Of a DNA stretch of 64,000 nt, positions 5,981-59,506 are shown piece by piece. The stretch is from an uncultured virus (IMG/VR IMGVR_UViG_3300028577_000007). Taxonomy: Duplodnaviria > Heunggongvirae > Uroviricota > Caudoviricetes. How positions within the stretch are numbered: position 1 is the stretch's first letter; the number at the start of each line of letters is the position of its first letter. The notes beneath the pieces were generated by a model. The model made no database searches, was not told the origin of the DNA, and was given only the letters and a program-made list of their open reading frames with translations. The stretch is taken from IMG/VR virus record IMGVR_UViG_3300028577_000007. One strand, written 5' to 3'. The position numbers and the translations under genes were made by a program.

Positions 5981-6114
5981 AAAACTTGAGATCTGCCCAG
6001 GGAGAGGGGTAGGCTGCCACGGACTAGGCTGGTTTGGCCCACGCGCCTCAATGAGGGGCGTGCCGGCTGGCAGGACGGCAGAGCGGCGCACTGGTGCGCC
6101 CTGGAGCCCGTCCC
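5981..6114 (+). promoter_or_regulatory. promoter (TTGAGA-N18-TAGGCT) plus conserved structured 5' leader, copy 1
   Basis: Shares blocks ACTAGG, GGTTTGG and GGCAGGACGGCAGAGCGGCGCACT..TGCGCCC..GGAGCC with 8681-8817. Confidence 0.7.
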
Positions 6115-8817: not shown

Positions 8818-11800
8818 ATGACTGATCGCAGCGCACTAGCCGATCGCGTGATCGGATCTCGAGCAACCCTGCTCGGCCTCGGCGACTCCCTCGAGAACGT
8901 CGTCACGACGACACTCGACGACGGCGCGCTCTGCTACGTCGCAGGCGAGCACCTTCACTACGAGCTCCACCGCGACGACACGAGCGCTCCCTCCCCCCCG
9001 AACATCATTGCCCCCATCGCGGGCCCCGGTCGCTGGGTGCCGGCGACGGGCGGCACGCAAGGTCAACAGGGCGCGCAGGGGCGTCAGGGCGCGCAAGGCG
9101 CGCAAGGCACGCAGGGCGGCGGCTTTCAAGGCGCGACGGGCGCGCAAGGGTTTCAGGGCGCGCAGGGGTTTCAGGGGTTCCAGGGCGTCGGCGCGCAAGG
9201 CGCGCAGGGATTTCAAGGATTTCAGGGAGCGCAAGGCGCGCAGGGAAATCAGGGGTTCCAGGGCCAAGCGGTCACCGGTCCCCAGGGATCGCCGGGACCT
9301 CAGGGGCCAGGCGGCGGCGCGCAAGGCGCGCAGGGCGCGCAGGGCTTCCAGGGCGCGCAAGGGACACAAGGCTTTCAGGGCGGCGGCTTTCAGGGCGCGC
9401 AGGGGTTCCAGGGGCAAACGGGTCCAGGCGGCGGCGCGCAAGGCGCGCAGGGCGCGCAGGGCTTCCAGGGCGGACTCGGCGCGCAAGGCGCGACCGGCTC
9501 GGGCGCGCAAGGCTCGACCGGCGCGCAGGGCGCGCAAGGGTTTCAAGGTGCCCAAGGCTTCCAGGGAGCGCAGGGTCGCCAGGGGAATACGGGCGGCACG
9601 GGCGCGCAAGGCGCCGCTGGCGCGCAAGGCGCTCAGGGCTTTCAGGGGAACACGGGCGCCACGGGCACGACCGGCGCGCAAGGCGCTCAAGGCTTCCAAG
9701 GGAACACGGGCGCGCAAGGGAGCACGGGCTCGCAGGGATCGCAGGGCGCGCAGGGCGCGCAAGGATTTCAGGGAGCTCAGGGCTTCCAAGGCGCCCTCGG
9801 CGCGCAAGGCAACGCGGGCGCTCAAGGCGCGCAAGGCTTCCAGGGCGCGCAGGGGTTCGGCGCGCAAGGCGCGACTGGCACGCAAGGATTTCAGGGAGCG
9901 CAGGGCTTTCAGGGAGCGCAAGGCGCGCAGGGGTTCGGCGCGCAAGGCGCGACGGGCGTACAAGGATTTCAGGGAGCGCAGGGCTTTCAGGGTGGAGGGT
10001 TCCAGGGAGCGCAGGGGCAAATCGGTCCACAGGGATCGGGCGGCGGCGCTCAAGGCGCGCAGGGCGCTCAAGGCTTCCAGGGGAACACCGGCGGCGCGCA
10101 AGGCGCTCAAGGATCGCAGGGGTTTCAGGGGTCCGGCGCTCAAGGCGCGCAGGGCGCGCAAGGCTTTCAGGGCGCGGCCGGCGCAGGTGGCGCGCAGGGC
10201 GCTCAAGGCTTCCAGGGAGCGCAAGGATTTCAAGGCTTCCAGGGAGCTCTCGGCACAGCCGGCGCGCAGGGCGCTCAAGGCTTCCAGGGAGCGCAAGGAT
10301 TTCAAGGATCTCAGGGCACGCAAGGATTCCAGGGCGCGCAAGGCCGTCAGGGCAATACCGGCACGGCGGGCACGACCGGCGCGCAGGGCTCCCAGGGCGC
10401 GACTGGCGCGGCCGGCGCAACCGGAGCTCAGGGCGCCACGGGAGCAACGGGCGCCACCGGAACAACCGGAGCTCAGGGCGCGACGGGCGCCACGGGAGCA
10501 ACGGGCGCGACGGGCGCGCAAGGGTTTACCGGCGCAACCGGCGCGACGGGCGCGCAAGGCGCAGTCGGTGCTGGCGGCGCGCAGGGTAGCCAGGGTCGCC
10601 AGGGCGCGACCGGTACCGCGGGCGCAACGGGCGCGACTGGCGCTCAGGGCTTTCAAGGCGCAACGGGCGCGACTGGCGCGCAGGGCGCCCAAGGATTTCA
10701 AGGCGCGACCGGCACCGGAGCTCAAGGCGCTCAGGGCTTTCAGGGCGCGGCCATCAATCCCCTGACGCAGGTCTTCTACGTCGACGCGGCCAACGCCGGG
10801 ACGGCCACGGGATCGATCGCTCAGCCCTATGCCTCGCCGACCGCAGCCTTCGCGGCTCACCCGACAGGCAACATCACGCTCCTCATCGCGCCCGCGTCTT
10901 ACGGGGCGGCGCTCGCGATCGGAGGCAACCGCAACATCACGATGATCGGGCTCTGCGAGCCGACCGATCAGACGGTGCAGCTCGGCGCCATCACGACGAC
11001 GTTTACGACGACGGCGGGGCTCACGCTCACTCTCCAGAACCTCACCTGCACGACGCTCACCGACTCGTCGGCCATCCAAGCGAACCTCGCGCTCATCGAC
11101 TGCCATGCGTCCGGTACGATCACGGGATCGGGCAACGGCGCTTCCAACACGATCGTCTACCTGTCGTCGGCCGTCGGCGGCCCGCGCGCGACGGGGATGC
11201 GCACGGAAGCCATCACGACCTCGACGGCCGTCTTCGCCGAGAACGCCTACATCAACGGCGTCGTGAACGTCAAGCGCGCAGGTGCCACTAGCCCGAGCAC
11301 CTACGAGAGCTGCACGTTTATCTCGGCGCCCGCCTCGGGCCCGATGATCTGCGAGGACTGCTTCTTCCCCGCGGGTCTCGCCGCTCCCATCGTCGCGGCC
11401 ACCATCCGCCTGAACAACTGCTCGATCGACGGAGATCTCACGGGCAGCTCGATCAACACGGACACGATCGTGCTGGACAACTGCCGAGTCGGTAATGCGT
11501 CGGCGACCACGACCCAGACCCTCGGCGAGTGGGGCAGCATGATCATCCGGAACACCGCCTTCGGCCCGAAGTCGTCGGGCTCGATTGCGCTTGCCGTGAC
11601 GCTCACCTCGCTCCAGCTCGACTCGGTCTCCGAGCGCAGTCTCTTCACGACGGGCAACGGGCAGGGCGCGATCGGCTCCTCCGCGAACGCCTTCATCGCG
11701 CTCGACGAAGGCGAGCAGAACGGGTTCCCGATCGACGGGATCCTGTCGACCTTCGACTTCACCATGAACCCGCGCCTCTTCTTGGCCCCGAAGACGCTCG

Positions 11801-12021
11801 GCGCCGACAAGACCATTCAGCTCGCGCTCGGGAGCGCCGCGCTCAAGGTGAGGCCCATCGACGTGTACGGCACGAACGGCCACACGCTGACGGTGCAATT
11901 CGGCGGCGTCACGATGCGTGCGATTGGCCCGACCGATCCGGCCCCGGCTCGTTACGTCTTTCAGACCTCTGAGGACAACGCGATCTTCGTCTTCGTCGGA
12001 GTGGAGAACGTCACCACATGA
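8818..12021 (+). CDS. collagen-like fibre protein 2 with probable beta-helix C-terminal domain
   Basis: GPGRW anchor, about 570 aa of G-X-Y triplets, then FYVD...GSIAQPY, typical of the start of parallel beta-helix domains. Confidence 0.9.
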
Positions 12022-12422: not shown

Positions 12423-13165
12423 CCGCGCCCGCCTCCCTTGCGCTCATCACGTACTACGGCCCGGCTCCCTACGAGCACCACGAGTCGGTGCGAAAGTCCG
12501 GGGTGCGCGTCGCGGCGCGCCGTCAGGACTCGTCCATCGACGCCGCGCGCGCAACCTTGCTCGAGACGGGGCTTCGGCAGAAAGAGCACGACGTCTTCGT
12601 CTTCATCGACTCGGATGTAGAATTTACCCGCGCGGGCTACGATCGCCTCGTCTCGTCATGCCACGAGACCGAAGGCGTCGTCGGCGGCGCTTACCTCAGC
12701 AAATCGCTCACGGGCTCTGGGATCTTGGTCGGCTCCCCCGCGAGCCCCGACGCCGAGCTGAAGTTTTACGCGGCAGGCGGCCTCTACCCCGCCAAGACGC
12801 TCGGGATGGGGTTTACCGCCATTCATCGCAAGGCCTGCGAGCGCATCGCGCGGCACCACGCGCTACCGAAGATCTTTTTTCCGGTCGGTGTCGACGGCGG
12901 GATGCTCTGCCACGCCTTCTTCATGCCGCTCGTCCTGCAGAACCAATACATCCGGGAGGACTTCTCGTTTTGTCTGCGCGCGAGCGCAGCGGGCGTTCCG
13001 CTCTTCTTCGATACGCGCCCCGAAGTCGTCCATCACGGGATGCACGGGTTTAGGCTCGAGGACGCGGCGTACCGCTCGGAGAAAAACCCGGGGCTGGTGT
13101 TCCAGATCACGACGGCGTCAGGCGAGGAGAGCGCGCCGCCTATCGCGACCGCCCTAGCCCCATGA
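12419..13165 (+). CDS. GT-A fold glycosyltransferase-like protein
   Basis: FVFIDSDV, GMGFTAIHR and EDFSFC motifs. Confidence 0.8.
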   Translation: MTAPASLALITYYGPAPYEHHESVRKSGVRVAARRQDSSIDAARATLLETGLRQKEHDVFVFIDSDVEFTRAGYDRLVSSCHETEGVVGGAYLSKSLTGSGILVGSPASPDAELKFYAAGGLYPAKTLGMGFTAIHRKACERIARHHALPKIFFPVGVDGGMLCHAFFMPLVLQNQYIREDFSFCLRASAAGVPLFFDTRPEVVHHGMHGFRLEDAAYRSEKNPGLVFQITTASGEESAPPIATALAP

Positions 13166-16062
13166 CGATTCGTTCCAGGATGGGGGCATCCGCGAGCGGC
13201 ACGCCGCGGGTGCCGCCAGGATCCGGAAGCCAAGGCTCGCAGGGGCAACAGGGCTTCCAGGGAGCGCAGGGCTTCCAAGGCGGCGGCGCGCAGGGCGCGC
13301 AGGGATCGACCGGGCCTCAAGGATCGGGCGGCGGCGCGCAAGGCGCGCAAGGCGCGACTGGCACGCAGGGCTTCCAGGGAGCGCAAGGCTTTCAAGGCGG
13401 CGGCTTTCAAGGCGCTCAAGGCGCGCAGGGCGCGACTGGCACGCAAGGCTTTCAGGGCGCGCAGGGAAATCAGGGGCAGCAAGGGCAACAGGGCGCGCAG
13501 GGATTTCAGGGAGCGACTGGCACGCAGGGCGCGCAAGGCGCGCAGGGCGCGCAGGGGTTTCAGGGATCGCAAGGCGCGCAAGGGTTCCAGGGCGCGGTTG
13601 GCGCTCAGGGATCGCAAGGCGCGCAGGGGTTCCAAGGAATGCTGCTGCCGAGCGCGAGCACGGGTCAGCTCCTCTACTTCGACGGATTGGTCTGGAATCA
13701 CACGAACGGCGTCCTCGCCGGCACGAACCTCCTCTCAATCGGTCCGGCTCCGTCGTCTGCGGGGCAGCTACGGCTCTCGGCCTCGCAGAGCGGCATTGCG
13801 CAGGTTACTAGTCGTAACTTCGCGGGCACGGGCGATCTCCTCGTCTACTCAGGATCGACGACGAGTGCCGATAATCAGAATTTCGGTGACCTGACAACGG
13901 CCGGCAGGACCACCATCGGAGGCGGCGCTCAGGTGACGCTCACGATCGGGGGCGGCCTGTCGATGACGCTCTCGGGCATTAGCATCACGACTCAGTTTAC
14001 GTCGCTGATTTTCGGCGCCGCAAATTCCCTCGTCGGCCCGGCCGACCTGAACACTGCCTCCGGTACCGGTACGACCTTCACGGTGCACGGTCAAAACATG
14101 AGCGGCGTCACCTCGACGGGTGGCCAGCTCATCCTCGCGTCGGGGACGGGCACGACGATCGCCGGCACCATCAGCCTCAACTTCGGCGCGACTCCGATCG
14201 TCACAGTTACCGGAAGCGGCATCGCTGTCGCCGGCCAAGTCGTCGCGAACGCGAGCACGGATCAGTTCGTGGCGAATGTCGCGACCGCGTCCATCCGCCT
14301 CGGCCTGGTTGCGGGGAGCGGAGCCGGATCCGCGGCCTCGGGCACGGCGTCGATTCGCGGGTCTTCGACGTTCGCGATCAATGTGCGGAACGCGGGCGAC
14401 AACGCCAACGCCAACGTCTTTTCTTACACCGGCTCCACGAACCTCATCACGATCGGCGAGAACACCGCCAACGTCACCTCGGTCGTTCTCTCGTCCTCGG
14501 GGAGCGTCGCGCTGAAGAGCGCTGGGGTCACGGTGCTCCAGCTCGCGATTGCAAGCTCGGACTTCGTGACCTTCGGGGCCGCGCCGGCCGCGACGGGCAA
14601 CATCCGCCTGCCCTTCGGCGCGAACACCGTCATGATGCGGAACGTCACGAACACCGCCGATCTCGCGGTGTACGGCTCCGATCCGGTCATCAATCAGCAG
14701 AACTTCGGTGACGTAAATAGCTCGAACCTGAACCTCCTCGGAGGAGGCCTCACCTTCGGGGATCCGACCTCGACGCGGCGCTTGTCTCTGTCGAGCACGC
14801 TCTTCCAGGTGAACGTCGTCACGTGGGAGTTCCCGATCACGCTGAGTGGAGCCGCAGCCCTCATCCGGTACGCGGACAACACGACCTCGGTGACCGGCGC
14901 TTCGCTCAGCGTCCGCGCTCAGGACAATACGTTCGCGGCGGGCGTGGGCGGCCAGATGAACGTCCACGGCGGCGACGCCTCCGGCACTGGCGCAACCGTT
15001 GGGGGCAAGGCGCTATTGCGCTCGGGCACGGGCGCCACGGCAGGAGCCCTCGAAGTCCGTGCGGGCGCCTTAACGATCTTCGACTGGGGCGTGACGACCG
15101 CGAACATCACGACGGTCAATAACGCTTCGCAGGTCAACCTCGCGGTCGCGGGCACCTCGAAGATCAGTATCACCGCGAGCTTCGCGCAGCTCCAGGTGGA
15201 CCTGGCTTTCGCCAAAGCGACGCCGGTCATCTCGCCGATTGACGACGCGACGGCGGGCGCGACGGGCACGCTCTTCACGATCCGTGGCCAGAACGAAACC
15301 GGCACGGGCGCGACCGTCGGCGGCAAGCTCCTCATTGCGTCGGGCACAGGAAATACGGCCGGCAATCTCGAGCTCCGAGTCGGCGCCAAAACCGTCTTTG
15401 ACTACGGAGTCACGAACGCCACGACGCTAACTGTCGGCGAGTCGACGATCCCGCTCATCCTAAATGGTGCGGGTGGAGCGAGCGCCATGGTGTTCGAGCT
15501 GGGTGGAGTGGGGCAGCTTCAGATCTTCACCACGCAGATCCAGTGCGTTCCGGGCAAGTTCTACTTCACGTCGACCGGCCAAGTTTCACCGCTGCCCATC
15601 AGCACGAACAGCGCAACGGGCGTAGTCATGACGTTCTCGGGGCAGGACTGCTCGGGCACGACGACGATCGGCGGCGCGACGCTAGTGCGTGGCGGCACCG
15701 GCACGACGCGCAACGGCAACGTCCACTTCCACGCCCAGGCCGCAAACGACCAGGCCATGGGCAACGGCATCTTCATCGGCAACGCGAGCTCGACCCCCAC
15801 CGGCAACCCCGCGTCAGGCGGCTTCCTCTACTCGACCGCCGGCGCTCTCCATTGGCTCGGCTCCTCCGGCACGAACACCACCCTCGGTCCCGCCGAGCCT
15901 CACTGCCCCGAGTGCGGGCGCGACTTCGCGCTCGAGTGGCAGCACGAGGACAAGGATGAGCACCTCGCGGTCTGCCTCCCCTGCCTGATCGGCACGCTCA
16001 GGAAGTCCGGCCACGATCACAAGAAATTCGCATTCGTGCACAAGTTGAAAGGAGCCGCCTGA
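13162..16062 (+). CDS. collagen-like fibre protein 3 with long G/T/A-rich repeat shaft
   Basis: Short G-X-Q tract, repeated GATVGGK-type units, C-terminal CxxC...CxxC. Confidence 0.85.
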   Translation: MTIRSRMGASASGTPRVPPGSGSQGSQGQQGFQGAQGFQGGGAQGAQGSTGPQGSGGGAQGAQGATGTQGFQGAQGFQGGGFQGAQGAQGATGTQGFQGAQGNQGQQGQQGAQGFQGATGTQGAQGAQGAQGFQGSQGAQGFQGAVGAQGSQGAQGFQGMLLPSASTGQLLYFDGLVWNHTNGVLAGTNLLSIGPAPSSAGQLRLSASQSGIAQVTSRNFAGTGDLLVYSGSTTSADNQNFGDLTTAGRTTIGGGAQVTLTIGGGLSMTLSGISITTQFTSLIFGAANSLVGPADLNTASGTGTTFTVHGQNMSGVTSTGGQLILASGTGTTIAGTISLNFGATPIVTVTGSGIAVAGQVVANASTDQFVANVATASIRLGLVAGSGAGSAASGTASIRGSSTFAINVRNAGDNANANVFSYTGSTNLITIGENTANVTSVVLSSSGSVALKSAGVTVLQLAIASSDFVTFGAAPAATGNIRLPFGANTVMMRNVTNTADLAVYGSDPVINQQNFGDVNSSNLNLLGGGLTFGDPTSTRRLSLSSTLFQVNVVTWEFPITLSGAAALIRYADNTTSVTGASLSVRAQDNTFAAGVGGQMNVHGGDASGTGATVGGKALLRSGTGATAGALEVRAGALTIFDWGVTTANITTVNNASQVNLAVAGTSKISITASFAQLQVDLAFAKATPVISPIDDATAGATGTLFTIRGQNETGTGATVGGKLLIASGTGNTAGNLELRVGAKTVFDYGVTNATTLTVGESTIPLILNGAGGASAMVFELGGVGQLQIFTTQIQCVPGKFYFTSTGQVSPLPISTNSATGVVMTFSGQDCSGTTTIGGATLVRGGTGTTRNGNVHFHAQAANDQAMGNGIFIGNASSTPTGNPASGGFLYSTAGALHWLGSSGTNTTLGPAEPHCPECGRDFALEWQHEDKDEHLAVCLPCLIGTLRKSGHDHKKFAFVHKLKGAA

Positions 16063-16379: not shown

Positions 16380-19300
16380 GTGACTGATCGAAGCAGCGTT
16401 GCCAGCAGAAACATCGGGGCGTGCGACACCCTCCTCGGGGACGCAAACTCCCTCGAGAACGTCAACACGTCGCTCCTCGATGACGGCTGCTTCTGCTTCG
16501 TGCAGTCAGAGCTCCTCCACTACGAGCTTCACCGGAGCTCGACGCAAGCGCCCGCGCCTCCGCTCGTCATCGCTCCCATCGCAGGCCCCGGTCGCTGGGT
16601 GCCCGCGACGGGCGGCACGCAAGGTCAGCAGGGCGCGCAGGGCGCCCAGGGCTCGCGCGGCGCGCAGGGGTCGCAGGGCTCGGGCGCGCAAGGCGCCGTC
16701 GGCGCGCAGGGCTTCCAAGGGTTTCAAGGCGCACAGGGTGCGCAGGGCAATACTGGAGCCGCGGGTACGACCGGCACGCAAGGCGCGCAGGGCTTTCAAG
16801 GATCGACGGGCGGCGCGCAAGGAGCGCAGGGCGCTCAAGGCTTTCAAGGATCGGGCGGCGCGCAGGGAGCAACGGGCTCGGGCGCGCAAGGCGCGACGGG
16901 ATCGCAGGGCGCGCAGGGGTTTCAGGGATCGGGCGGCGGAGCGCAGGGCGCGCAAGGGAATCAAGGCGCGCAGGGCGGGCTCGGCGCTCAGGGATCGACG
17001 GGAGCCGGCGCGCAAGGCGCGACGGGATCTCAAGGCAACCAAGGGGCGCAAGGCTTTCAAGGCTCGGGAGCGCAGGGCGCGCAGGGCGGCCAGGGGTTTC
17101 AGGGCGCGCAAGGGCGTCAAGGCGCGACGGGCACGGGCGCGCAAGGCGCGTCCGGAGCGCAGGGATCGACTGGCGCGCAAGGCAACCAGGGCGGAAACGG
17201 CGCGCAAGGCGCAAGCGGCGCGGCGGGCGCTCAAGGCGCTACCGGATCCCAAGGCGCAAGCGGCACCACTGGCGCGCAGGGCGCGCAAGGCGCGCAGGGC
17301 TCGAGCGGCGCGTCCGGAGCACAAGGATCGCAGGGCGCGCAAGGCGCGCAGGGCTCGGGATCGCAAGGCGCGACGGGCGTACAAGGATTTCAGGGCGCGC
17401 AGGGCGCGCAAGGCTCGGGGTTTCAGGGATCGCAAGGCGCGCAAGGGCCGGGCGGCGGAGCTCAAGGGGCTCAAGGCGCGCAGGGGCAACAGGGCGCGCA
17501 GGGCGCTCAAACCTCGCTCGCTACCGCGGCCGGACTCGGCGCGTACACGGGGGACGCGCGCGACGGAGATCTCACCGCGTCTTCCGGCACTACGGTGCTC
17601 TCGCACGACACCTTCTACGGCACGATCACGCTGAGCGGCACGGCCTCGATCGACACGAACGGCTACAAGCTCGCCTGCCTCGTCTTCGACGCTCGAAACG
17701 CCTCCGCGGGCGCCATTCAGTGTAACGGCTCTGCGGGCACGGCCAACACGACGGGCGGCAGTATGGCTGCGGGCGGCACGGGGCGAGTCTCGACGCATTC
17801 GCTCGGCGGCAGCGGCAGCGGCGGCACGGGCGCGGCCTCCGTGGTCAATGGCAGCTCGGGCCTCACGGGCGGCGCCGGGACGGGCGTCTCCCCCTCGAAC
17901 GGCGGCAACGGTGGCGCTTCTGGCGCATCGGGCGCGGGGAGCGGATCGGGTCACGCGAGCGTCGCGGGGGGAGCCGCGACCACGTCGCGCGCGATTGCGC
18001 AGTACGTCTCCGATCTGCTGACGTACACGGCCTCTTCGGTCGCCTACATCGTGGGCGGCGCGGGCGGCGCGGGCGGATCGAGCGGCGGCGCGGGCGCGGG
18101 CGGATCGGACAGCAGCGGCTCGGGCGCGGGCGGCGGCGCGGGCGGCGGCGTCCTCTACTTCGTCGCGGGCAATATCATCACCGGACCGTCGACACCCGCA
18201 GGCGTCGTGCAAGCTCGCGGCGGCGCGGGCGGAGCGGGCGGCGCTGCCGGCGGCACGGGCGCGGGTGGCTCGGGCGGCGCCGGCGGCGGCGGCGGCGGGA
18301 TGGTGTACGCCCTCGTAGGCAACGTCACAGGTCCGCTCGTCAACTCGTTCTTCGACGCCAACGGCGGCGACGCGGGCGCGCCCGGCGCGAAATCCGGATC
18401 GGGCGCCGCGGGCTCGCCGGGCATCGGCGGTATCGGCGGCACCTGCACGGCGATCTATCTGACGGGATCCCGCGCGTACAGCGTGATCAACGGCACCGCG
18501 ATCGGCGCGAACGGCGGCACGAGCGCGCTGAACCTCACGCCGACCCCGGCCTTCGTGGCGGGTCAATGGACAAACATCAGTCCCTCGCAAGAGCGTTTCG
18601 GTGAAATCGGCACCGAAGAGACGCTCTCGATCGGCTGGGCTTTTGCGGCCTCCTCCCCGAATATCATGTTCCTATGCGTGAGCAGCTTCGACTTCGTGAA
18701 CTTCTCACAAGCCGGCGAGCGCGGACACGTCTACAAGAGCACGGACGGCGGCATCAGCTGGGTGGTCTCGGGCAACTTCTCGAACCCCGACATGGTGAAG
18801 ATCGATCCGGCCGATCCCAATCACGCCTACGTCATTGATGGCGTGCGCGGGAACACGATGGGCTTCTTCCGCACGACCGATGGCGGCGCGACATGGGTGC
18901 AGCCGGCGGGCTTTACGGCGCTAGCTAGCGTCGTCGGTACCCTGGACGTGGGCTCGATGTCGGTCGATCCGGCCGACTTTAATCACATCATCTTGGGCTA
19001 CCACGGGACGTGGACGAGCGGCCCGACCGGGATGGCCGTCAGTACGGATGGCGGCACGACCTGGAGTCAGGTTGCTCCCGACGCAGGCATGAGCGGTCAG
19101 GGATACTTTTCAGAGTTTCTCTACGATCCAGTGCACAGCGTGGGGACCCCGTCGACCTGGCTCTTCCTCACGCAAACGAGCGGCATGTGGAAGACCACGA
19201 ACGCTGGCGCGTCCTGGACCCAGGTGACGACGCACAACATGGCGCACGAAGGCGCGCACGTGACGTACTTCAACGGCTACGCTTTCGTCGGCTGCTTCGG

Positions 19301-19583
19301 GTTTTTGCTCCGGAGCGCGGACAACGGCAGCACGTGGACCACGGTGAGCGGACTCCCGTCGGGCTCGTACGTCATAGCGATCATCGCGAACGGGAAAATC
19401 TACGCGCAGCCGAGCGGCTTCGCGAACGTAACTCCCTCTCCGTTCTATGAGAGCAGCGACGGCGTCACCTGGGTGCAGTCCGGATCGGCGACCTTCCATT
19501 CCGGGCCCTGTGACGGCGGCTACGCGAACAACGCGCTCTACGCGTCGATGTACGAAGCCGGTCTCTGGCGCTACCAGTTCTGA
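16380..19583 (+). CDS. collagen-like fibre protein 4 with Gly-rich domain and Asp-box beta-propeller
   Basis: Anchor almost identical to fibre 1; six Asp-box repeats ([47 protein letters not shown]). Confidence 0.9.
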
Positions 19584-20703: not shown

Positions 20704-21114
20704 GTGGAACCCAAGTCAGCGGAGGGCCGCGCGATGCCAAGCGTAGAGTTGTCAGAAGCGCAGTTCGAGCGGCTCGTGGGGATGCTGGCCGATAACCGCG
20801 TTGCGATTCACACTGTCAAGAATGAGGTGGTCGCGGCTATCGCAGAGAGTGAGGGTCGGCTCAAAAAGGAGATCCAGTTCCTAGGTGCCGGGCTGACTGC
20901 GCTGGAAGAAGATATGGGTCGCGTTCAGGTCGGTATCCGAGAGCTGCTGAAGACTCAGGGCGATCACAGTCAGGCGGTCGACGGGCTCACGCAACTCGGC
21001 AAGACGAACTTCGACATGAACGAGTCGATCCTGAAGCAACTTCACGGTGAGTCTGGGGCAAGCGCACAAGATCATGGCGAAACTGAAGAGAGCCGTGGGT
21101 CTGGTCTCACGTGA
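20704..21114 (+). CDS. coiled-coil protein (may be fused to the downstream REC domain via a frameshift)
   Basis: Heptad-like sequence; 68-nt overlap with the next ORF. Confidence 0.6.
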   Translation: MEPKSAEGRAMPSVELSEAQFERLVGMLADNRVAIHTVKNEVVAAIAESEGRLKKEIQFLGAGLTALEEDMGRVQVGIRELLKTQGDHSQAVDGLTQLGKTNFDMNESILKQLHGESGASAQDHGETEESRGSGLT

Positions 21115-21469
21115 TCCAGTTGTGCTTCTGGTCGACGACGAGCCTACGTACCTAGAAAGTCTAGTGTGCCTCTTGTCGCGCGAGGCGCTGCACATTAAGC
21201 AGGCGCGCTCGGGTCTCCACGCGCTCGAGGTGCTCCAGTCACAGGAAGTCGATGTCGTCGTCGCCGACTACTGGATGATCGGGATGGATGGCATCACCCT
21301 CCTAAACGAGGTCCAGCGTCTCTACCCTGAGACGCGGCGCGTGCTCCTCACTGGCGCGCCCGACTCGGAGATCGTTCTGGAAGCGAAGGCGCACAAGGTC
21401 TTGACGAAGGACATGCGCCCCGAGCTCATTCGGCAGTCGATCTTGCGGGCGGCCCGGCGGAAACCATGA
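21047..21469 (+). CDS. response-regulator receiver (REC) domain protein
   Basis: LLVDDE, VVADYWMIGMDG (phospho-Asp), LLTG and LTK. Confidence 0.9.
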   Translation: MSLGQAHKIMAKLKRAVGLVSRDPVVLLVDDEPTYLESLVCLLSREALHIKQARSGLHALEVLQSQEVDVVVADYWMIGMDGITLLNEVQRLYPETRRVLLTGAPDSEIVLEAKAHKVLTKDMRPELIRQSILRAARRKP

Positions 21470-23803: not shown

Positions 23804-24004
23804 GTGACGACTGAGGCTACGACTGACCCGCTCGCGCGCATCCGCACTGACTTCATGACCATCGAGCGCATGACGCAGATCCATGTCACCGAAACGCTCG
23901 AGCGCCTCGATTGGCACATGACGCATGCGGCCGTCGCGCTCGGGGTAGATCGCCGGACGCTCTATCGGATGGTCGAGCGGTATGGAATCAAGCGCCCCGG
24001 CTGA
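23804..24004 (+). CDS. stand-alone Fis-family HTH protein
   Basis: THAAVALGVDRRTLYRMVERYG, resembling the C-terminal HTH of NtrC-type activators. Confidence 0.85.
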   Translation: MTTEATTDPLARIRTDFMTIERMTQIHVTETLERLDWHMTHAAVALGVDRRTLYRMVERYGIKRPG

Positions 24005-24683
24005 CGCCAGAACCCCCGTGCCAGAGCGTCGCTCGCGCGAAGCGCGGACGGCGCTCGTGAAGCAGTGGACTCCGCTCGTCAAGAGTATCGCCAATCGCTA
24101 TCTCCGTCGGCTCGGTCGCTGGTACGAGTTTAGTGACCTCGTTTCGGTGGGCCTCGCTCAGCTTTGGGTCGCGAGCGGGAACTACGACGACACCATGGGG
24201 GCGCAGTTCGGGACGTACGCCTACTATGCGATCTACCGGGCCTACGAGGCGATCCTCGAGTACCTGTACAAGAACAAGCGCCGCGACGCGCTCCGGGCGG
24301 TCAGCTACGACGAAGCGTACGAGGACGGAGCCCCGGTGCGAGAGATCCCGGCGCCTGACCTGTCGCCATACGACGCGCTCGATTTGCGTCGCGACGTGCG
24401 GGCCATGGAGCAGGCGCTCCGCGCGCTCCGCCCGAACGATCGCCGGATCATCCTCGGTCGCTTCATGGAAGGGGAGAAGCTCGGCGAGCTTGCGACGGAG
24501 CTTGGGGTCACGAAACAGCGCGCGCTCCAGATCGAGCAGCGCGCCCTCCGGCGCCTTCGCCGCGAGCTCGCCCCGGTCCTTTCGGACCGGGAAGGCGGGG
24601 GTCCGCCGCTCAGCTGCAAGCAGGCGAACATCGGGAAACAGAGGGCAACCGGGAAAGTTGCCTCCGGGCCCAGGATCCCGTAG
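23982..24683 (+). CDS. sigma-70 family RNA polymerase sigma factor
   Basis: Region 2 (LVKSIANRY, DLVSVG, FGTYAYYAI) and region 4 (ELGVTKQRALQIEQRALRRLR). Confidence 0.9.
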   Translation: MESSAPADARTPVPERRSREARTALVKQWTPLVKSIANRYLRRLGRWYEFSDLVSVGLAQLWVASGNYDDTMGAQFGTYAYYAIYRAYEAILEYLYKNKRRDALRAVSYDEAYEDGAPVREIPAPDLSPYDALDLRRDVRAMEQALRALRPNDRRIILGRFMEGEKLGELATELGVTKQRALQIEQRALRRLRRELAPVLSDREGGGPPLSCKQANIGKQRATGKVASGPRIP

Positions 24684-48853: not shown

Positions 48854-50451
48854 ATGACCGCAATTACCCTCCCCGCAAAAGAGCTCTCCTGGCTGACCGC
48901 CCCCGCCTTCGCTTCGCGAAAGCGCACCGTGAAGGTCGAAGTGACGACCCGCGTTTACTTCGGCAACACGTTCTGGGACGGCGGCTCGAAAAATACCTAC
49001 CGCGCTGTCCGCCTCGCCGACGGCAACGTCGCGTCGCTCGAGACGGGCTCGTCGCCCTGGACGGCGGTCGCCGAGGGCAAGGCCGTCGAGCTCGAGCCCG
49101 GTATCGCCATCGTGGAAGAGTCGATCTTCTGCGGCAAGCAGATGCCGCTCCGCGTCTACCTGCACCCCTCGAACGCCGCCCCGCTCCTGGGGAGTAATTC
49201 CCAGCTCCCTCCGTACGAGAGAACACACCAATGGCCAAGCCCACCACCATGCCCGGTAAATTCGGCACGCTGTACCTGTACGAGCTGACCTACACGGACA
49301 CGTCAGACTCCGGCATGGGAGAGCTCACCTGCCGGCTCTGGGCCTACAACCTGGAGCACGCCGAGGACAAGTTCTACGGGGCGCCCGACGCTGACGGCTG
49401 GACGCTGCTCAGCGCAGCGCGCGTGCCGGCTGACTCCTCCTCCATGCACCGCGCAGTGCAACACACCCGCTGACACCCCCATGACCCGCCCCTTCGTCAC
49501 CCAGCAAGAGATCGACTCCCTCCTCCGCCGAGCGGGACTCCCGCTCGCGGAACGCGCCACGAGGCCGCCGCCGCCCTTCGGGACTGAGGGGTTCGATGTC
49601 TACCAAGACGCGATCGATCCGCGCGCCTACCTGAGGCCGGCCCTCCCTGCGCCGAGCTCGCTACTCTCGCATCCGCTGTACTGACCATGATCAACCTAGT
49701 CGCGTCCAACGCTATGGGCACGAAGAAGAACCTCCTCGGCTTCTTCTGCAACGTTGAAGAGGCCAAGGGATACGCCCAAGCCAAGGTGAACGAGATCGGG
49801 CTCTCCGAGCAGCTCTCCTGGAAAGAGATCACCGAGGACTTGCCGCTCCGGGAGCTGTTCATGACGGGGTCGCTGCTGCCCGTGAGCGTGCTCCGCGCGA
49901 ACTATGCCGACTCGTGCCTCATCATCCTGGATTACGGGTTCTGATCGGGGCTGTCATGACCAAGACCCGCACCTTCGTGAACCCCGGCATTTTCCTCAAG
50001 CTCACGAACCAGCAGGCGAGCATGATCCGCAAGGTGGAGTGGAGCTACAAGGAGCTCCACCGCCTCGTCGCTCGCGCCTTCGACGAGCACGCCGCCGGGA
50101 ACCTCCCCGAGGCCCGCATCCTCCTGAACCAAGCCCTCGACATCGAAATCGAGCTCGTCGGAGACTGCCCGGTATTGGGTGATCTCTCCGAGGAGTGGGG
50201 CGTAGACTACGAGCGCGACCAAAGGAAGGCCTAAAATGAGAATCGCCGACAGTTACCTCGAAGAAGTCATCGCCCTGGGCGGCAGCACGCGCCAGGGCCC
50301 CCTCAGTCGCGAGGCAGCGTGCCGCCTCGCGCTCGACCTGCGCGAAGCCCGGGAACAGATCCTGGCCCTCAGAGAAGAGATCTCCGAGTACGAGCGCCTG
50401 AGCCGTGAGCCACGGCGCGCGGGCGGGAAGATTGCTGGCCCCCGAGCGTAG
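48854..50451 (+). other. run of six small hypothetical ORFs (starts 48854, 49231, 49481, 49687, 49956, 50236)
   Basis: Tightly packed co-oriented ORFs typical of phage accessory regions. Confidence 0.6.
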
Positions 50452-52076: not shown

Positions 52077-54699
52077 GTGATCATCAACACCGAAATATGC
52101 GGCCACTACGAGCGCGTCATGCGCCCGCCCCCCGACGAGCGCCTCGCGCGCTTTCTTGATCAGGTAGGCCGGCGCGCCATGGTCATCCCCCACAAGGGCG
52201 GGCGCTTCGTCTGGCTCCTGGACGTGCCGACAGAAGATCTCTGCCAGGTCCACGACGAAGCCGTAACCTTGAGCCTCAGTCTCTACGATCCTGAGCCCGT
52301 GCCCTTCAGGATTGGCGCCGCGGATCGGGAAAAAAGCGATCAGCTCCTGCTCGAGCGATACGACGCGCTCCGCTCGGCCCCGTCGCGAGGCACCGAAGAG
52401 GATCCATGACTCAGGACGAACGATCCAAGAGTGGGGGACGACGCTGGCTTCCGGGAAGAATCACTCGCCGGAATCAGAGCCCTCGAAGCGGAGCTTCGAA
52501 TGGCTGAGCGTGAATTCGCTCAGCTGTCTAACCAACTGCTGCTTCAACAAGCGGAGGGGGAGCGTGACCGAGCAAACGAGCGAGCAAAAGCGGATCGCGA
52601 TCGATCGGACGCGCTCGCCAGGCGGACGCTCTTGGTAGCCGCGCTAGCGGCAGTAAGCACGCTGGGTCAATGCGTCGCCCCGATCTATAAAATCTTCAGA
52701 CCAGACATCGCCCCCGCTCCGATCGCAATCCCGGCTCCTATCGTAACGGTGACCGTTCCAGCCCCAACTCCACTTGTGATCCCGGCTCCGATCGTCAGCG
52801 TTATTGTGCCGGCCGCGGGCGCTCGCAAATGAATCGTTACGAGAAAATGAAGGAGGGTCCGTGACCGCACCCCGAAAAGAGCTCCTGATCTGGTGGACGA
52901 ACAACGCCGAAGCGATCGCCATCGGCGACGAAGCTCCTGCAGCTCTTCCGGAGGACGTGCGCGAGCAGTACCGCTTGCGGAGGGGCTGGTCGGGCGCCGG
53001 CGCCAAGCTCTGGGTGCCGAAGAAGTTCGGGGAGAGGCAGATTGCTGACTGGCCGGACACATTCATCGCGCGCATGATTCGCAATGGAACATCCGCCGGG
53101 ATTGTGTTCGCGAGCCCAGATCTGAAGCTGTTCAAGGGCGTCCCCGGTGTTCTGACCGACTTCCAATTGCGCGTCGTGGTGATCTGAATGCCCACTCCTG
53201 ATAACCTTCGACAAATCGCTCACCTCTTGGATCTGCTCGTCACCGTCGACCCCATGCACGTCAGGGTCGAGCTGCGCGGCGCGCGATCCATGTCCCCTAC
53301 CCAGACTCGAGCACTCGCGATCGAGCTGCTCTACGCGGCCGACGAAGCCGAGGGCGAAGAGAGCCTCGGCTCCTTCGGCTACACGGCAGAGGACTCGTAC
53401 AAGCTCGGGGAGCTCTACATGACCATCGACGAAGAACTCGGCTGGGAGGATGACGAGCAAGAGCTCGACAGTGACTACCGAGCGAGGATCAAGCAGGTGG
53501 GAGCGTTACTGAAACGTCGACTCAGGCTGGTGAAATCATGACCGCGCGGCAGCTGACCCCGGTTCCTACTCCCCATCAAGCAGTCCAGGTGCTCGAGATC
53601 TTGCAGCGCTGGACGAAGCGCGGCTGGTGGTACGACTCGTATATGACCCGCCACCAAGGCGTCGAGACGTACTACGTTCACTTCAGCGACCCAGACCCCG
53701 ACGCGCCGGAACATTTAGAGACCAAAGGCGTGAACCACTTCGACGCCCTCTGCCAGGCCACGGCCGCGATGCAGATCTTGCTCGAAGAGCGTCCCGAGAC
53801 CTAAATGGCCTTCGTTACCTCCTACGAACGCCGCACCCCGGGCGGACTCCGCACTCGCGTCCTCTGCTGCTACGACGGGCGCCAAGCGCGACCCGATGAT
53901 CCGGTACTGAGCCACACCGTACACTTCTGCCAAGACCCAAGCGGGCGGCTAGCCCACGTGGAAGAGCTCTGGAAAGAGCAGGGCTGGGGCAAGCGCGGAA
54001 AAGATCTTCCGATCTGCCCCGGGCACCGGCAACCAACCGACACCGACTGGACCGACTAACGATGGCTATCTGGTTAGAGGAGCTGAATTCGGGCGGCCGG
54101 GTCGTGGGATGTCACCACGGTAATGAGTCGATGCTGAAACCAACGGACAACGGAAAGCTCGGCGTCGACAGATACCAGATCTACCCGACTCATACCCTCG
54201 AAGTGCCTCGCGACGCCGACCTAGTCGGATGGGCTCGTCGAGGCGGCCGGCTCCCCATCTGCCCCGGGCACAGGCAACCAACCGACACCGACTGGGCCGA
54301 CCCATGACCCTCATTTACACCCCGCGCCACGTCGATCAGCTCATCAATGAGATCGCAAACGATTGGGCCCAGACCAACGACCCCGACATGCACCGCGTAG
54401 CGGACGCTTTCCCGCTCGAAGTGCTCGAGAAGGCCTACCTGAAGAAGCTCGACGCCTTGGCTCCATTGCCAGAGTCCTCCTCAGGGCGCGCTGAGACGCC
54501 GGCCCAAAAGATCCATGTCATGCGGAGGCTGTGCCGCGCATGGTTCCGTGAGCCCCAGCTCCGCATCGGGCAATTCATCGCCACGGCGCTGCTTCACGGT
54601 AACCCCCGGTCTGCCGATGATGCCATGCGGCGTCTCTTCTATCAAGACGACAGCGCGATCGCCGATCTCGTGGAAAAGCGGTATTCTCACCCGAAGTGA
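52077..54699 (+). other. run of small hypothetical ORFs (52077, ~52406, 52861, 53188, 53538, 53805, 54062, 54304)
   Basis: Coupled + strand ORFs; 53805 and 54062 share the C-terminus LPICPGHRQPTDTDW. Confidence 0.6.
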
Positions 54700-56406: not shown

Positions 56407-56434
56407 TTGACAGCTTCGTGCTGTCTCGTATAGC
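56407..56434 (+). promoter_or_regulatory. TTGACA promoter overlapping operator site 6 (56409-56425)
   Basis: ttgacagcttcgtgctgtctcgtatag; heads the gene run leading to the Cas12m-like gene. Confidence 0.7.
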
Positions 56435-56445
56435 GTGAGCGGGTC

Positions 56446-57941
56446 ATGTCGGACGCGCCTGAGATTCGCTCATTCATCTGCTTTGCGCGTCATCGGGATG
56501 AAAGCCGGAGACCGCGCTGGTCTCTCGTCTCGGCTTGGACCGCGGCCGACGCCATCGCCCAGAGCGAGCTCTACCTGCGCCGGCTGCCATGCAGCTGCGG
56601 TTCACGCTGCACGCACCTGCACCAAGAGTTGATCCTCACCCGAGTCGAGCCATTCGATCGCGAGACTCACGAGTATTTGTTCCTGCACCAGGAAGATCGC
56701 TGGTAGCCCCTCCGTAGGACCACCCAAGATGTCATTCCCACTCGCCTATCTCTTGCCGGCCGCCTATCTGCTCGTGGGCGGCATGCTGATGCTCGGTACG
56801 CAAACCATCGTGGGCAGGATCTTGACCCGCACGGAGATCGTGCGAGGCGTGTTGCTCTGGCCCGTCTTCCTGCTCCTCGCCATCGAACACTTCCTCCTCG
56901 AGCTGATCGGCCGGTACCGTGACTGATCCGGTCATCCTGAGCGATCTCACGCGCGCGCTCCGAGATCTCGAGCTCGTGAGGCCCTACTCGTCGAGCCCGA
57001 CCGCCCGCACGTGGCGGGGGGCCATCGTCAACCTCCGCGGCATCGAAGCCGTGCTCATCGCGATCGACGCCTTCAGGCCAGGGCTCCTCCGGGCTCTCGA
57101 GGCCTCCGCGATCGACGAGATGCTCGTGGTGCACGACGAGCCGATCCCGGAGGTGACGGCGCTCATCCGGCGCTACGCGCGCCGACTGGAGCCACTCCGG
57201 TGAGCGATTTACTCACGGTGACACGGGCGAAGACCCTCTGCGCCGAGGCGCTCGAGAAGCGCTTCGGCTGGCTCCGGCGCGAGCTCGCCCTCAAGGGCGG
57301 CAACCTGAACGAGCTGCCCGCGACGCACCAGCTGCTCTGGTTTGGGCGGCAGAAGGCTATCGGTCGCTACAACCGCATCGGTGAGCAGCGGGACCCGGGG
57401 AAACGTGAGCGCGCTTACCTCAAGCTCGCGCGAGAGCTTCAGCGATGAAGCCTCCCGCGATGAAGCTCCTGAACTGCACGCGCTGCGACGACGTGGTGAA
57501 GCTCGTCGAGAAGCTCCGGTACTGCGAGTGCACGCTCTCGAGCGGACGGACGGAGTTCTCGGGGGCAGAGGTGACGATCGCGGGTCCGGCCCGCGTGCTC
57601 ACGATCGATTGGGAAGTGTACGACGGGATCGCCGAGGGGACCGAGCGACCGTTTGGTGTTCTGCCGCGATCCCAGTACCGGGTGAAAGGCAGCTTATGAA
57701 AGGTCGAAATGTATTCGCCGAAGAGATCACGTTCGTCCTGGTCGATCGTCAGACCGGCGAGCGTCGTGTCGCAACGCGCGATGACATCAAAAAGATCCTC
57801 GCTGAGCTAGGGCTCGAGATCGTTCCAATCGGAACAGTGAACTGGGGAAGGCATCCGGACGCTGACCTTATGGAACGAAGAATCGCTGACCTGACCGAAA
57901 AAATCGCTGCATTGACCAAGAAAGATCCAGTTGCACCATGA
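56446..57941 (+). other. six small ORFs (56446, 56729, 56919, 57200, 57445, 57696)
   Basis: Mostly coupled by overlapping start/stop codons. Confidence 0.6.
57116..57241 (+). repeat. long inverted repeat, left copy
   Basis: Matches the reverse complement of 63078-63200 with a few substitutions and one 3-nt indel. Confidence 0.9.
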
Positions 57942-59500
57942 TGGTCTACCGCTACGGCGCCTTGAAGCCTCGCGTGCTCGATAACGACGGAGCCGAGCTC
58001 CCCTTCGAGACGCTGCTCGACTACCAACGTCTCTCGAACCGCTTCTACAATGCCCTCGTCGAGATCGAGCGCTGGCGCATTGCGGCTGAGTTCGTGACCG
58101 AGATACTCAACGGAGATCGGCTCACCGAAGACCAGAAGAACGAGCACCGGCTCGCTTACAACGCGGACTGCTCTGTCGCGGGTCAAGAGACGACGATCGG
58201 CTGGGGCCAGAAACAGGCCGTGACCGAGATGGTTGCGGCCGCGGTGAAGACCCGTCGCAAAGACGAAGCCAAGGCGCGCCGGAAGGCTGACCTGAAAGAC
58301 TGGCACTGGCTGAAGCGCGTGCTCGCCATCCCGCGGCCCCGCTACCGGCGCTTCGACGGCGAGGGCCCTATTGCGGCAACCGTCCAGGGGTGCAGCAAGC
58401 TCACGGTGAAGTCCGTGCTCTCACCGAGCCCCAAGCCCACCAAGCGGAAGAAGCCCCTGGCGACCCATGTTGCCCTCCGCGTCGTGGAGACCAAGCATCG
58501 CAACTCCCACGCGATCGTCACGCTCCGCCTGTGCGACACGCTCAGTCTCGAAGTGCCGATCGTCTACGCCCCTGAGCGCGCAGAGTATCGCAATTCCGAC
58601 GTGCGCCCGCTCCCGAAGGAGTCCATCGGCCCGAGCGGCGCCCCGTACGATGTCCGCGTCATCTTCGCTCGCTTGCTCGTCGATCGCATTGGGGATCGCT
58701 GGGTGTACTCCGTGCACTTCACGATCGATGCCGTGCACGCGAAGAAACCGACGGGCATCGGGAAGTGCGCCGTCAACTTCGGCTGGCGGCGCGTGCCGGG
58801 AGGCGTCCGGGTCGCCTACGCCGTGGGCGAGGACGGCCGCGAGCAGTCCCTCGTGCTGCCCGATAAGCTCTTCGCTCGCATGGAGCACGCGGAATCCCTT
58901 CGCGGGCTCGCTGACGAGATCGCCGACGCTTACCTCGGCGACGGCGGGCGGCGCGCGAAGTCGCGCAAGGTGGCGCTCTCGTCGCCTCACGCCAATCACC
59001 CCGAGCTCGGCAAGATCCGCTTCACTCTCGAGCAGGCCAAGCTCGGGAGCGCCAAGGACGCCGAGCAGTGGGCGCGGCGCGACCGGCACCTCTATCAATG
59101 GGAGCGAGACGAGTACACGAAAGCGCTTCGCTCGCGGCGCGAGATCTATCGTCTCTGGGCGCGCGAGCTCCTCACCCAGTACGACTCCGTCGTCATCGAG
59201 ACCTTCGACATTCGGCAGGTCATCGAGCGCGGGAAGTACGAAATGAACATCCCGCAGGCGCGGCACTATCGCTTCCTCGTGGGCCCGCACTACTTGAGGC
59301 TCGACATCGAAGATGTGTTCGGGGAGCAGTGCAAGGTGCTACCGCCGGCGAAGCACACCCAGACTTGCCACGTGTGCGGCACCAAGTGCACATGGGATCG
59401 CGCCCGCGAGCTCATGCACGACTGCAAGAAGTGCGGAGCGTCTTGGGATCAGGACGCCAACAACGCCCGGAACCAGCTCGCGGCGGCTGCAGCCGAGTAA
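57938..59500 (+). CDS. Cas12m/TnpB-like protein with RuvC-I Asp replaced by Asn
   Basis: VYRYGALKP...YNALVEIER N-terminus; AVNFGWRR (RuvC-I), VVIETFD (RuvC-II), CHVC...CKKC Zn ribbon, WDQDANNARN (RuvC-III). Confidence 0.85.
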   Translation: MMVYRYGALKPRVLDNDGAELPFETLLDYQRLSNRFYNALVEIERWRIAAEFVTEILNGDRLTEDQKNEHRLAYNADCSVAGQETTIGWGQKQAVTEMVAAAVKTRRKDEAKARRKADLKDWHWLKRVLAIPRPRYRRFDGEGPIAATVQGCSKLTVKSVLSPSPKPTKRKKPLATHVALRVVETKHRNSHAIVTLRLCDTLSLEVPIVYAPERAEYRNSDVRPLPKESIGPSGAPYDVRVIFARLLVDRIGDRWVYSVHFTIDAVHAKKPTGIGKCAVNFGWRRVPGGVRVAYAVGEDGREQSLVLPDKLFARMEHAESLRGLADEIADAYLGDGGRRAKSRKVALSSPHANHPELGKIRFTLEQAKLGSAKDAEQWARRDRHLYQWERDEYTKALRSRREIYRLWARELLTQYDSVVIETFDIRQVIERGKYEMNIPQARHYRFLVGPHYLRLDIEDVFGEQCKVLPPAKHTQTCHVCGTKCTWDRARELMHDCKKCGASWDQDANNARNQLAAAAAE

Positions 59501-59506
59501 GCGAGC

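Follow-up and report, generated by a model that had tools for sequence, protein, structure and literature searches.

The gene at 57938-59500 on the plus strand of a 64,000-nucleotide (nt) stretch of DNA from an uncultured virus of the Caudoviricetes, a soil phage (IMG/VR record IMGVR_UViG_3300028577_000007; the whole stretch is referred to here as the window) encodes a Cas12m, the effector of type V-M (formerly V-U1) CRISPR systems, and is a rearranged example of that known system, not a guide-less orphan. The original prediction had called it an orphan effector; this label does not survive closer inspection, as the array is missing only locally and two cognate repeats remain in the slot from which the effector has departed. 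We hold, with moderate confidence, that the gene is the intact Cas12m of a split V-M locus, its guides most probably coming in trans from another site.

A compact Cas12m of an Asn-type clade

The predicted Cas12m-type identity of the 520-amino-acid (aa) product, P0001, is borne out by profile, sequence and structure comparisons alike. The PADLOC Cas12u1 model matches residues 236-518 (E 7.6e-46), and a phmmer search against solved structures aligns residues 236-516 with the Cas12m 23vw_A (E 4.4e-29), leaving the N-terminal 235 aa outside all sequence matches. The structure prediction that had been proposed as a check, an AF2 model built on a 40-sequence alignment (predicted local distance difference test score, pLDDT, 86; predicted template modelling score, pTM, 0.78), has the fold of Cas12m, with its WED, REC, RuvC and TNB zinc-ribbon parts; its four best Foldseek matches in the PDB are all Cas12m (Cas12m2 8hhl, 8hhm and 8hio, and GoCas12m 8pm4; query-normalised TM-score 0.56-0.68, E 7.5e-19 to 5.8e-16) and rank ahead of Cas12f and TnpB. 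The sole Pfam match is a Cas12f1-like TNB zinc-ribbon domain (26.7 bits, cut-off 26.3).

The motifs read from the sequence are likewise in place within an intact frame. The RuvC-I residue is Asn280 ('CAVNFGWRR'), at which position the solved Cas12m 23vw_A has Asp ('AAIDLGWR'); the RuvC-II Glu421 ('VVIETFD') and the RuvC-III Asp504 and Asp506 ('WDQD', in 'WDQDANNARN') are present, and the zinc ribbon consists of Cys 477, 480, 496 and 499, two CxxC pairs that are invariant across the alignments. A protein search returned 58 proteins, and 40 of the first 41 were aligned, a 327-aa fragment (P0030) being omitted; these relatives measure 435-520 aa and are 36-73% identical to P0001. All 40/40 sequences share Asn280, Glu421, Asp504, Asp506 and the four Cys without exception, and P0001 keeps the shared residue at all 53 invariant columns of the 40-sequence alignment that contains it. 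Farther out, an alignment of 35 of the 58 proteins shows Asp in 13 and Asn in one of 14 distant, longer proteins, and the RuvC-I residue in 28 related loci is Asp in 19 and Asn in six, the remaining three being fragments or lacking the motif. As judged from these alignments, Asn280 is a trait of the clade and not a sign of decay; the earlier suggestion that it marks a special domestication in this virus is contradicted by its fixation in the whole clade, whose members bear ordinary arrays. The phages that bear this compact N-E-D clade come from soil and the rhizosphere and measure about 110-136 kb.

In two published studies, Cas12m proteins with D-E-D, H-D-D or N-D-D triads are described as binding DNA without cutting it (PMC11013384), and their processing of precursor CRISPR RNA (pre-crRNA) as independent of RuvC (PMC11013384; PMC10442227). 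By analogy with these relatives, P0001 is expected to bind DNA under RNA guidance without cleaving it and to load crRNA.

The emptied slot and its two cognate repeats

In related loci the order is geneX (a gene that belongs to no family), cas12m, array and a gene on the minus strand. In all nine distinct loci of the Asn clade, a repeat begins 55-88 nt past the cas12m stop codon, behind a conserved leader that spans 68 profile positions and has the core ..CGCTCGCAA..GTAAGT..GGAAT.. (in L001, 11468-11536). Arrays of 2 to 27 repeats are present in 7/9 loci: 23 repeats in L001, 27 in L003 and 12 in L037, together with five in L002, five in L035, six in L038 and two in L041, these last four arrays reaching the contig end; L039 has one repeat, cut at the end of its contig. 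The repeats of the relatives are 36 nt long and the spacers mostly 33-42 nt. We also note that L046 carries the conserved leader and a single repeat (211-315) followed by unrelated sequence, a natural one-guide Cas12m locus.

Some relatives possess, in addition, a short-spacer mini-array between geneX and cas12m: three repeats with spacers of 15 and 25 nt in L001 (9824-9971), and two repeats in L035 (9855-9962). Since the last mini-array repeat of L001 ends 29 nt before the start of cas12m, the leader of the effector mRNA may carry its own binding site. A separate observation concerns the contig G002, where a second cluster of seven repeats, divergent in sequence and intact in structure, with spacers of 15-35 nt (G002 110300-110692, equivalent to L127 10300-10692), lies at the far contig end in opposite orientation to the main array at the contig start; its short spacers have no targets in G002, in the complete relative G001 or in the window.

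Repeat structure was assessed on 16 hand-picked repeats, 14 from relatives together with the two from the window (R1 and R2). Two crossing helices of three and five pairs emerge, with all 8/8 pairs paired in 100% of cells and 5/8 pairs covarying, a result matched by 0/500 shuffles; slid controls fall to 25-49%. This pairing is consistent with a stem I plus stem II pseudoknot, and PMC11013384 describes a triplex-pseudoknot with stems I and II in the Cas12m crRNA.

The history of the locus in the window can be read from its collinearity with the reverse strand of G001 (65.9-135.4 kb), the contig of L001, which is complete at 135,429 bp and has terminal repeats. In L001 and L037, cas12m and its array are bracketed by geneX and the minus-strand gene; these two are neighbours in the window, so that the 108-nt gap between them (41946-42053) represents the ancestral slot, from which effector, leader and array have gone. 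Yet this gap is not devoid of CRISPR sequence: whereas the original prediction reported no CRISPR array in the window, and no array of at least three repeats is indeed present there, the gap holds the two cognate repeats, which had gone unnoticed. A repeat pattern gave a single match in the window, and the pair was then read in the gap; a profile made from L001-L003 only finds R2 (42000-42032, E 0.00097) and R1 (41951-41980, E 0.2) and no other window match below E 3.3. Both repeats keep the pairing of the family pseudoknot in both stems, and the arrangement of R1, 12 nt and R2 resembles the mini-arrays upstream of cas12m in L001 and L035. A minimum free energy fold of this region is uninformative (z-score +0.81), pseudoknots lying outside that model.

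Further dispersed single repeats were sought in the window with a covariance model that included R1 and R2 and were rejected, the best match beyond these two reaching 14.9 bits (E 0.057). Independently of this, the 734 nt at 48497-49230 lack any open reading frame (ORF) with a coding-type G+C content at third codon positions (GC3), and contain a weak minus-strand repeat-like match (49185-49216; 13.7 bits, E 0.11).

The effector now lies 16 kb downstream of its old slot, at the end of an operon and without leader or array; the equivalent position in G001 (window 57.7-59.5 kb) contains two other, unrelated genes. As had been proposed, cas12m is translationally coupled to upstream small genes, ATGA overlaps at 57696-57699 and 57938-57941 joining it to the ORFs 57445-57699 and 57696-57941, and it is the last gene of this promoter-led run. 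A promoter-like 27-nt motif (TTGACAGC..CGTGCT.TCTCGTATAG) occurs in exactly two copies in the 64 kb (0 in 100 shuffles), one heading the cas12m operon and the other, at 42439-42465, adjoining the emptied slot; it is not found in G001 at up to 5 mismatches. Expression of cas12m would be driven, to judge from its position, by the copy at 56407-56433. The idea that a guide might overlap the coding sequence finds no footing, as the leader conserved in nine loci is absent after the gene and no repeat occurs in 57-64 kb, nor in L034, a metagenome contig that extends about 5 kb beyond the window end. A leader remnant at 59501-59540, initially suggested by pairwise-looking similarity, was discarded because the nine-leader profile has no match there.

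That this split arrangement is real is confirmed by independent assemblies. The identical gene, flanked by the same genes, recurs in three metagenome contigs (L032-L034), the DNA of the gene is identical in four assemblies, and the junctions of both the old slot and the gene are bridged without differences in contigs of the runs X4, X5 and X8. In a tree of 32 proteins (that of the window, 16 from loci and 15 of 40 database proteins), P0001 is sister to P0002, its nearest relative, which lies on a 136-kb contig, and is nested among array-bearing loci with support 99/99, which indicates that the loss of the adjacent array is derived.

Table 1. Positions of the effector gene, the old slot and flanking features in the window.
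Feature	Positions	Strand	Remarks
geneX	41127-41945	+	272 aa, no family; directly upstream of cas12m in L001, L002 and L035
Repeat R1	41948-41984	+	Starts 3 nt past the geneX stop; compensatory C-G pair in stem II, one extra G
Spacer-like 12 nt	41985-41996	+	Between R1 and R2; no credible target in the window
Repeat R2	41997-42032	+	Repeat type nearest that of L002, L037 and L038
21-nt tail	42033-42053	+	Follows R2, as far as the minus-strand gene's stop codon; would serve as guide in an R2 crRNA; no target
Minus-strand gene	42054-42368	-	In L001 and L037 its homologue comes straight after the array; bounds the ancestral slot on this side
Promoter-like 27-mer	56407-56433	+	TTGACA, 17 nt, TATAG; heads the overlapping small genes that end in cas12m
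ORFan	57696-57941	+	81 aa; ATGA overlap with both neighbours; GC3 0.54; coding status uncertain
cas12m	57938-59500	+	520 aa (P0001), compact type V-M effector; N280-E421-D504, C-terminal four-Cys zinc ribbon
Convergent gene	59507-60544	-	Only the N-terminal ~80 aa match the relative G001

The source of the guides

Of the options originally listed for the guide, that of being encoded elsewhere is now favoured by the cognate repeats 16 kb upstream and by an array of the same type in the same metagenomes, while nothing points to a guide borrowed from the host. In the public runs X4, X8 and X10, a contig passes from position 41981 back to 41950 via 39 other letters; X8 has a further joint, the fourth, which leads from 41981 back to 41946 via 37 letters; the depths of these joints (7-11) compare with about 5-12 for the phage. 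We read the joints as a regular array of 36-nt R1-type repeats with spacers of about 35 nt. The old slot is bridged at full phage depth, and hence this array is not an equally abundant allele of the slot; its place may be the half of this genome not seen here, or the genome of a co-occurring sister strain. In the viral_contigs collection, the R1-type repeat has no exact match, and a degenerate pattern retrieves only the contig of L002. The possibility raised at the outset that the gene belongs to an ordinary V-M system with its cognate array elsewhere thus probably holds as regards the existence of the array, while its placement on the same molecule is only a possibility.

The spacers of relatives offer an indication of what such guides might be directed at. 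One L002 spacer (11794-11831) matches the cas12m of L002 itself (10110-10147) at 36/38 positions with TTC on the side of the protospacer adjacent motif (PAM), and partially matches the cas12m of L001, L035 and L037, with 5-7 mismatches over 38 nt. In L001, a spacer agrees with 26/28 positions of a site in its own genome. These matches are consistent with the targeting of kin phages, which PMC11656645 reports for viral arrays, and the L002 spacer could serve either self-regulation or an attack on the effectors of rivals. The PAM is not callable from these cases, the four cas12m protospacers of the one L002 spacer showing TTC or CTC on the 5' side and the L001 self-match CGT.

Taken together, a plausible course of events starts from an ancestral locus composed of geneX, an optional short-spacer mini-array, cas12m, the 68-nt leader, the CRISPR array and the minus-strand gene. 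This locus would have split in such a manner that the effector coding sequence alone moved 16 kb downstream while two intact cognate repeats stayed behind. With guides presumably supplied in trans, P0001 would, as its family suggests, bind a crRNA whose 36-nt repeat folds into the two-stem pseudoknot and clamp PAM-flanked DNA without cutting it, thereby blocking transcription or replication; the targets in this phage group are likely to be competing related phages.

Several points weigh against this view. The R1-type array, seen on contigs of the runs, may be that of a sister strain and not of this phage's own molecule, since contigs 90-99% alike occur in the same runs. In the complete relative G001, the canonical locus is the only one with repeats, and synteny therefore does not suggest where a further array might lie in the part of the genome not seen. 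Neither mini-array guide finds a target in the window, G001 or viral_contigs; binding, absence of cutting and crRNA loading are extrapolated from relatives only, and the four gene copies show no variation, hence providing no direct measure of selection.

Rather than depending on guides from a distant array, P0001 might use one or two fixed guides from the mini-array of the old slot (R1 plus 12 nt; R2 plus ~21 nt or more), no full array existing, and be dedicated to repressing the transcription of some gene of the phage or its host, in the manner of TldR or of CreR-type elements. We regard this as unlikely, albeit the strongest of the competing explanations. It would account for the perfect pseudoknot pairing of R1 and R2, for the intergenic position of the mini-array on the same strand as the gene, and for an operon placed behind a promoter-like motif whose sole other copy adjoins the mini-array slot; it also finds parallels in the structurally intact short-spacer units of L001 and G002 and in the single repeat of L046. 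However, besides the missing targets already mentioned (the 20-nt guide after R2 has no self-target in the window at up to 5 mismatches, nor does this 20-mer have an exact match in viral_contigs, and the 12-nt stretch has 13 window matches at up to 2 mismatches versus 0-9 in ten shuffles, none convincing), a guide of 12 nt would be very short, the same samples contain a regular R1-type array, and the two repeats may be a mere scar of a repeat-to-repeat deletion.

It is improbable, in our estimation, that the array-less effector is instead loaded during co-infection with the crRNAs of related phages, which it would use or sequester, thereby blunting the rival system. Related phages 90-99% alike do share the same runs, their spacers aim at kin and in one case at cas12m itself, and the repeat structure is conserved throughout the clade; but this scenario is purely inferential, the repeats differ by several bases between relatives, and cross-recognition is hypothetical. 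We give similarly little credence to the view of the gene as a functionless relic decaying after the break-up of its locus. The loss of leader and array and the mosaic, variable nature of the slot would fit decay, whereas the intact frame, the conservation of every invariant column, a coding-type GC3 of 0.86, the tight operon position with ATGA coupling and the identity of the DNA in four assemblies argue against it.

Finally, a protein of TnpB/TldR type whose omega-RNA-like guide overlaps the 3' end of its own gene, a reading for which the 'Cas12m/TnpB-like' wording of the original prediction had left room, is very hard to defend: the C-terminal TNB and RuvC regions do resemble TnpB profiles, but these score far under their cut-offs (NCBIfam IS200_TnpB, 23.8 bits against 425; guided_TnpB, 15.9 against 100), the Cas12u1/Cas12m matches are about 40 orders of magnitude better, the relatives use CRISPR arrays, no tnpA or transposon ends are seen, and no conserved non-coding stretch lies 3' of the gene. 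No Rfam family was matched in the window.

Genomic setting and relation to known systems

The surroundings of the gene largely agree with the first description. A convergent ORF ends 6 nt from cas12m, and among the 79 window ORFs scanned against Pfam there is no cas1, cas2 or tnpA domain, nor cas4. The small ORF that precedes cas12m is atypical in composition, with the GC3 given in Table 1 contrasting with 0.83-0.88 in its neighbours and a genome value near 0.85, and a collection of 5.8 billion proteins contains no relative of it; a guide within it was considered and ruled out, as it shows no repeat match and its RNA fold has a z-score of -0.45. A 115-nt inverted repeat, 94% complementary (57137-57251 and 63068-63182), brackets a 5.8-kb segment with cas12m, and its right arm duplicates the junction of the genes 56919-57203 and 57203-57448. 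As an agent of relocation this element was set aside, having no counterpart in G001 and no clear tie to the move.

The rest of the window, at 62-72% G+C, is phage-like, with collagen-repeat fibre proteins, SLT and CHAP hydrolases, a tyrosine integrase, a sigma factor and two tRNAs; the GenBank phages include no near DNA match to it and one distant protein match (30% identity). Four very large proteins are encoded at 6094-7974, 8818-12021, 13162-16062 and 16380-19583; three have long collagen-like Gly-X-Y repeats, and the fourth has a sortilin/BNR-type domain, its DNA also containing Gly-X-Y-type copies. These four are probably fibres, and the window's whole tandem-repeat signal stems from them. 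The phage also encodes, at 21047-21469 and 23982-24683, a protein with a response-regulator receiver domain and a factor of the sigma-70 family, and a 51-nt direct repeat (54006-54056 and 54251-54301) belongs to two adjacent small paralogous genes with a common C-terminal 'LPICPGHRQPTDTDW' motif.

In sequence, fold, TNB zinc ribbon and non-canonical RuvC-I residue, P0001 resembles the published Cas12m proteins (MmCas12m/Cas12m2, 8HHL; GoCas12m, 8PM4; 23vw), and the system shares with type V-M its 36-nt two-stem pseudoknot repeats and its carriage by a mobile element; no adaptation genes were seen among the scanned window ORFs, the window being about half of the genome. It departs from them in several respects. 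Whereas known Cas12m proteins have about 600 aa, P0001 has 520 and its clade 435-520, with a shorter helical REC insertion according to the alignment; the triad is N-E-D, unlike the published D-E-D, H-D-D and N-D-D; and, in contrast to the usual type V-M layout with the array beside the effector, the effector of the window lies apart from leader and array. TldR proteins are nuclease-dead TnpB-like repressors whose guides are of omega-RNA type and encoded at the 3' end of the gene; as a small, RuvC-inactivated, RNA-guided DNA binder, P0001 is their functional analogue only, since it belongs to another family and its relatives use CRISPR arrays.

Two reports bear on novelty. A review places type V-M on plasmids and 'some prophages' (PMC11656645), and according to a 2026 preprint the myxophage MV-1 has a 610-aa D-E-D Cas12m beside an array (bioRxiv 10.64898/2026.09.14.751636). 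As in MV-1, a phage here carries cas12m with CRISPR repeats and, among the window ORFs scanned, no cas1, cas2 or cas4, while the window differs from MV-1 in its compact N-E-D effector and its split locus. A further preprint (bioRxiv 10.1101/2023.03.03.530964) describes CreR-type crRNA-like mini-arrays, with repeats standing alone in type I loci and upstream of cas12a; the one to three repeats with short spacer-like stretches by the cas gene in L001, L035 and the window slot are similar to these as described, yet no partial match to a target close to a promoter turned up, and the mini-array of the window is no longer beside its effector. The literature searched contains neither a compact N-E-D clade nor a split V-M locus, and supplements may list such proteins. 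V-M systems of phages and prophages and binding-only Cas12m of the Asn type are thus already known, and the new part is the split layout.

By itself, the window's gene is nothing unusual within a family already known. What makes Cas12m attractive is that it is a very small, programmable binder of DNA that by nature does not cut, and the clade with the fixed N-E-D site is smaller still; the phage group furthermore offers natural phage-versus-phage targeting, including a spacer against a rival's cas12m. Within one collinear set of phages, the locus appears with arrays of up to 27 repeats, with a single repeat, with short-spacer mini-arrays and with a separated effector, and this range of states renders testable the step from an adaptive-immunity effector to a fixed-guide regulator. 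Should the fixed guides of the old slot prove to be those that P0001 employs, the phage would have dismantled its V-M system, a CRISPR effector would have been caught turning into a TldR-like repressor, and the short-spacer units of the relatives would form a layer of regulation that phage Cas12m systems regularly possess.

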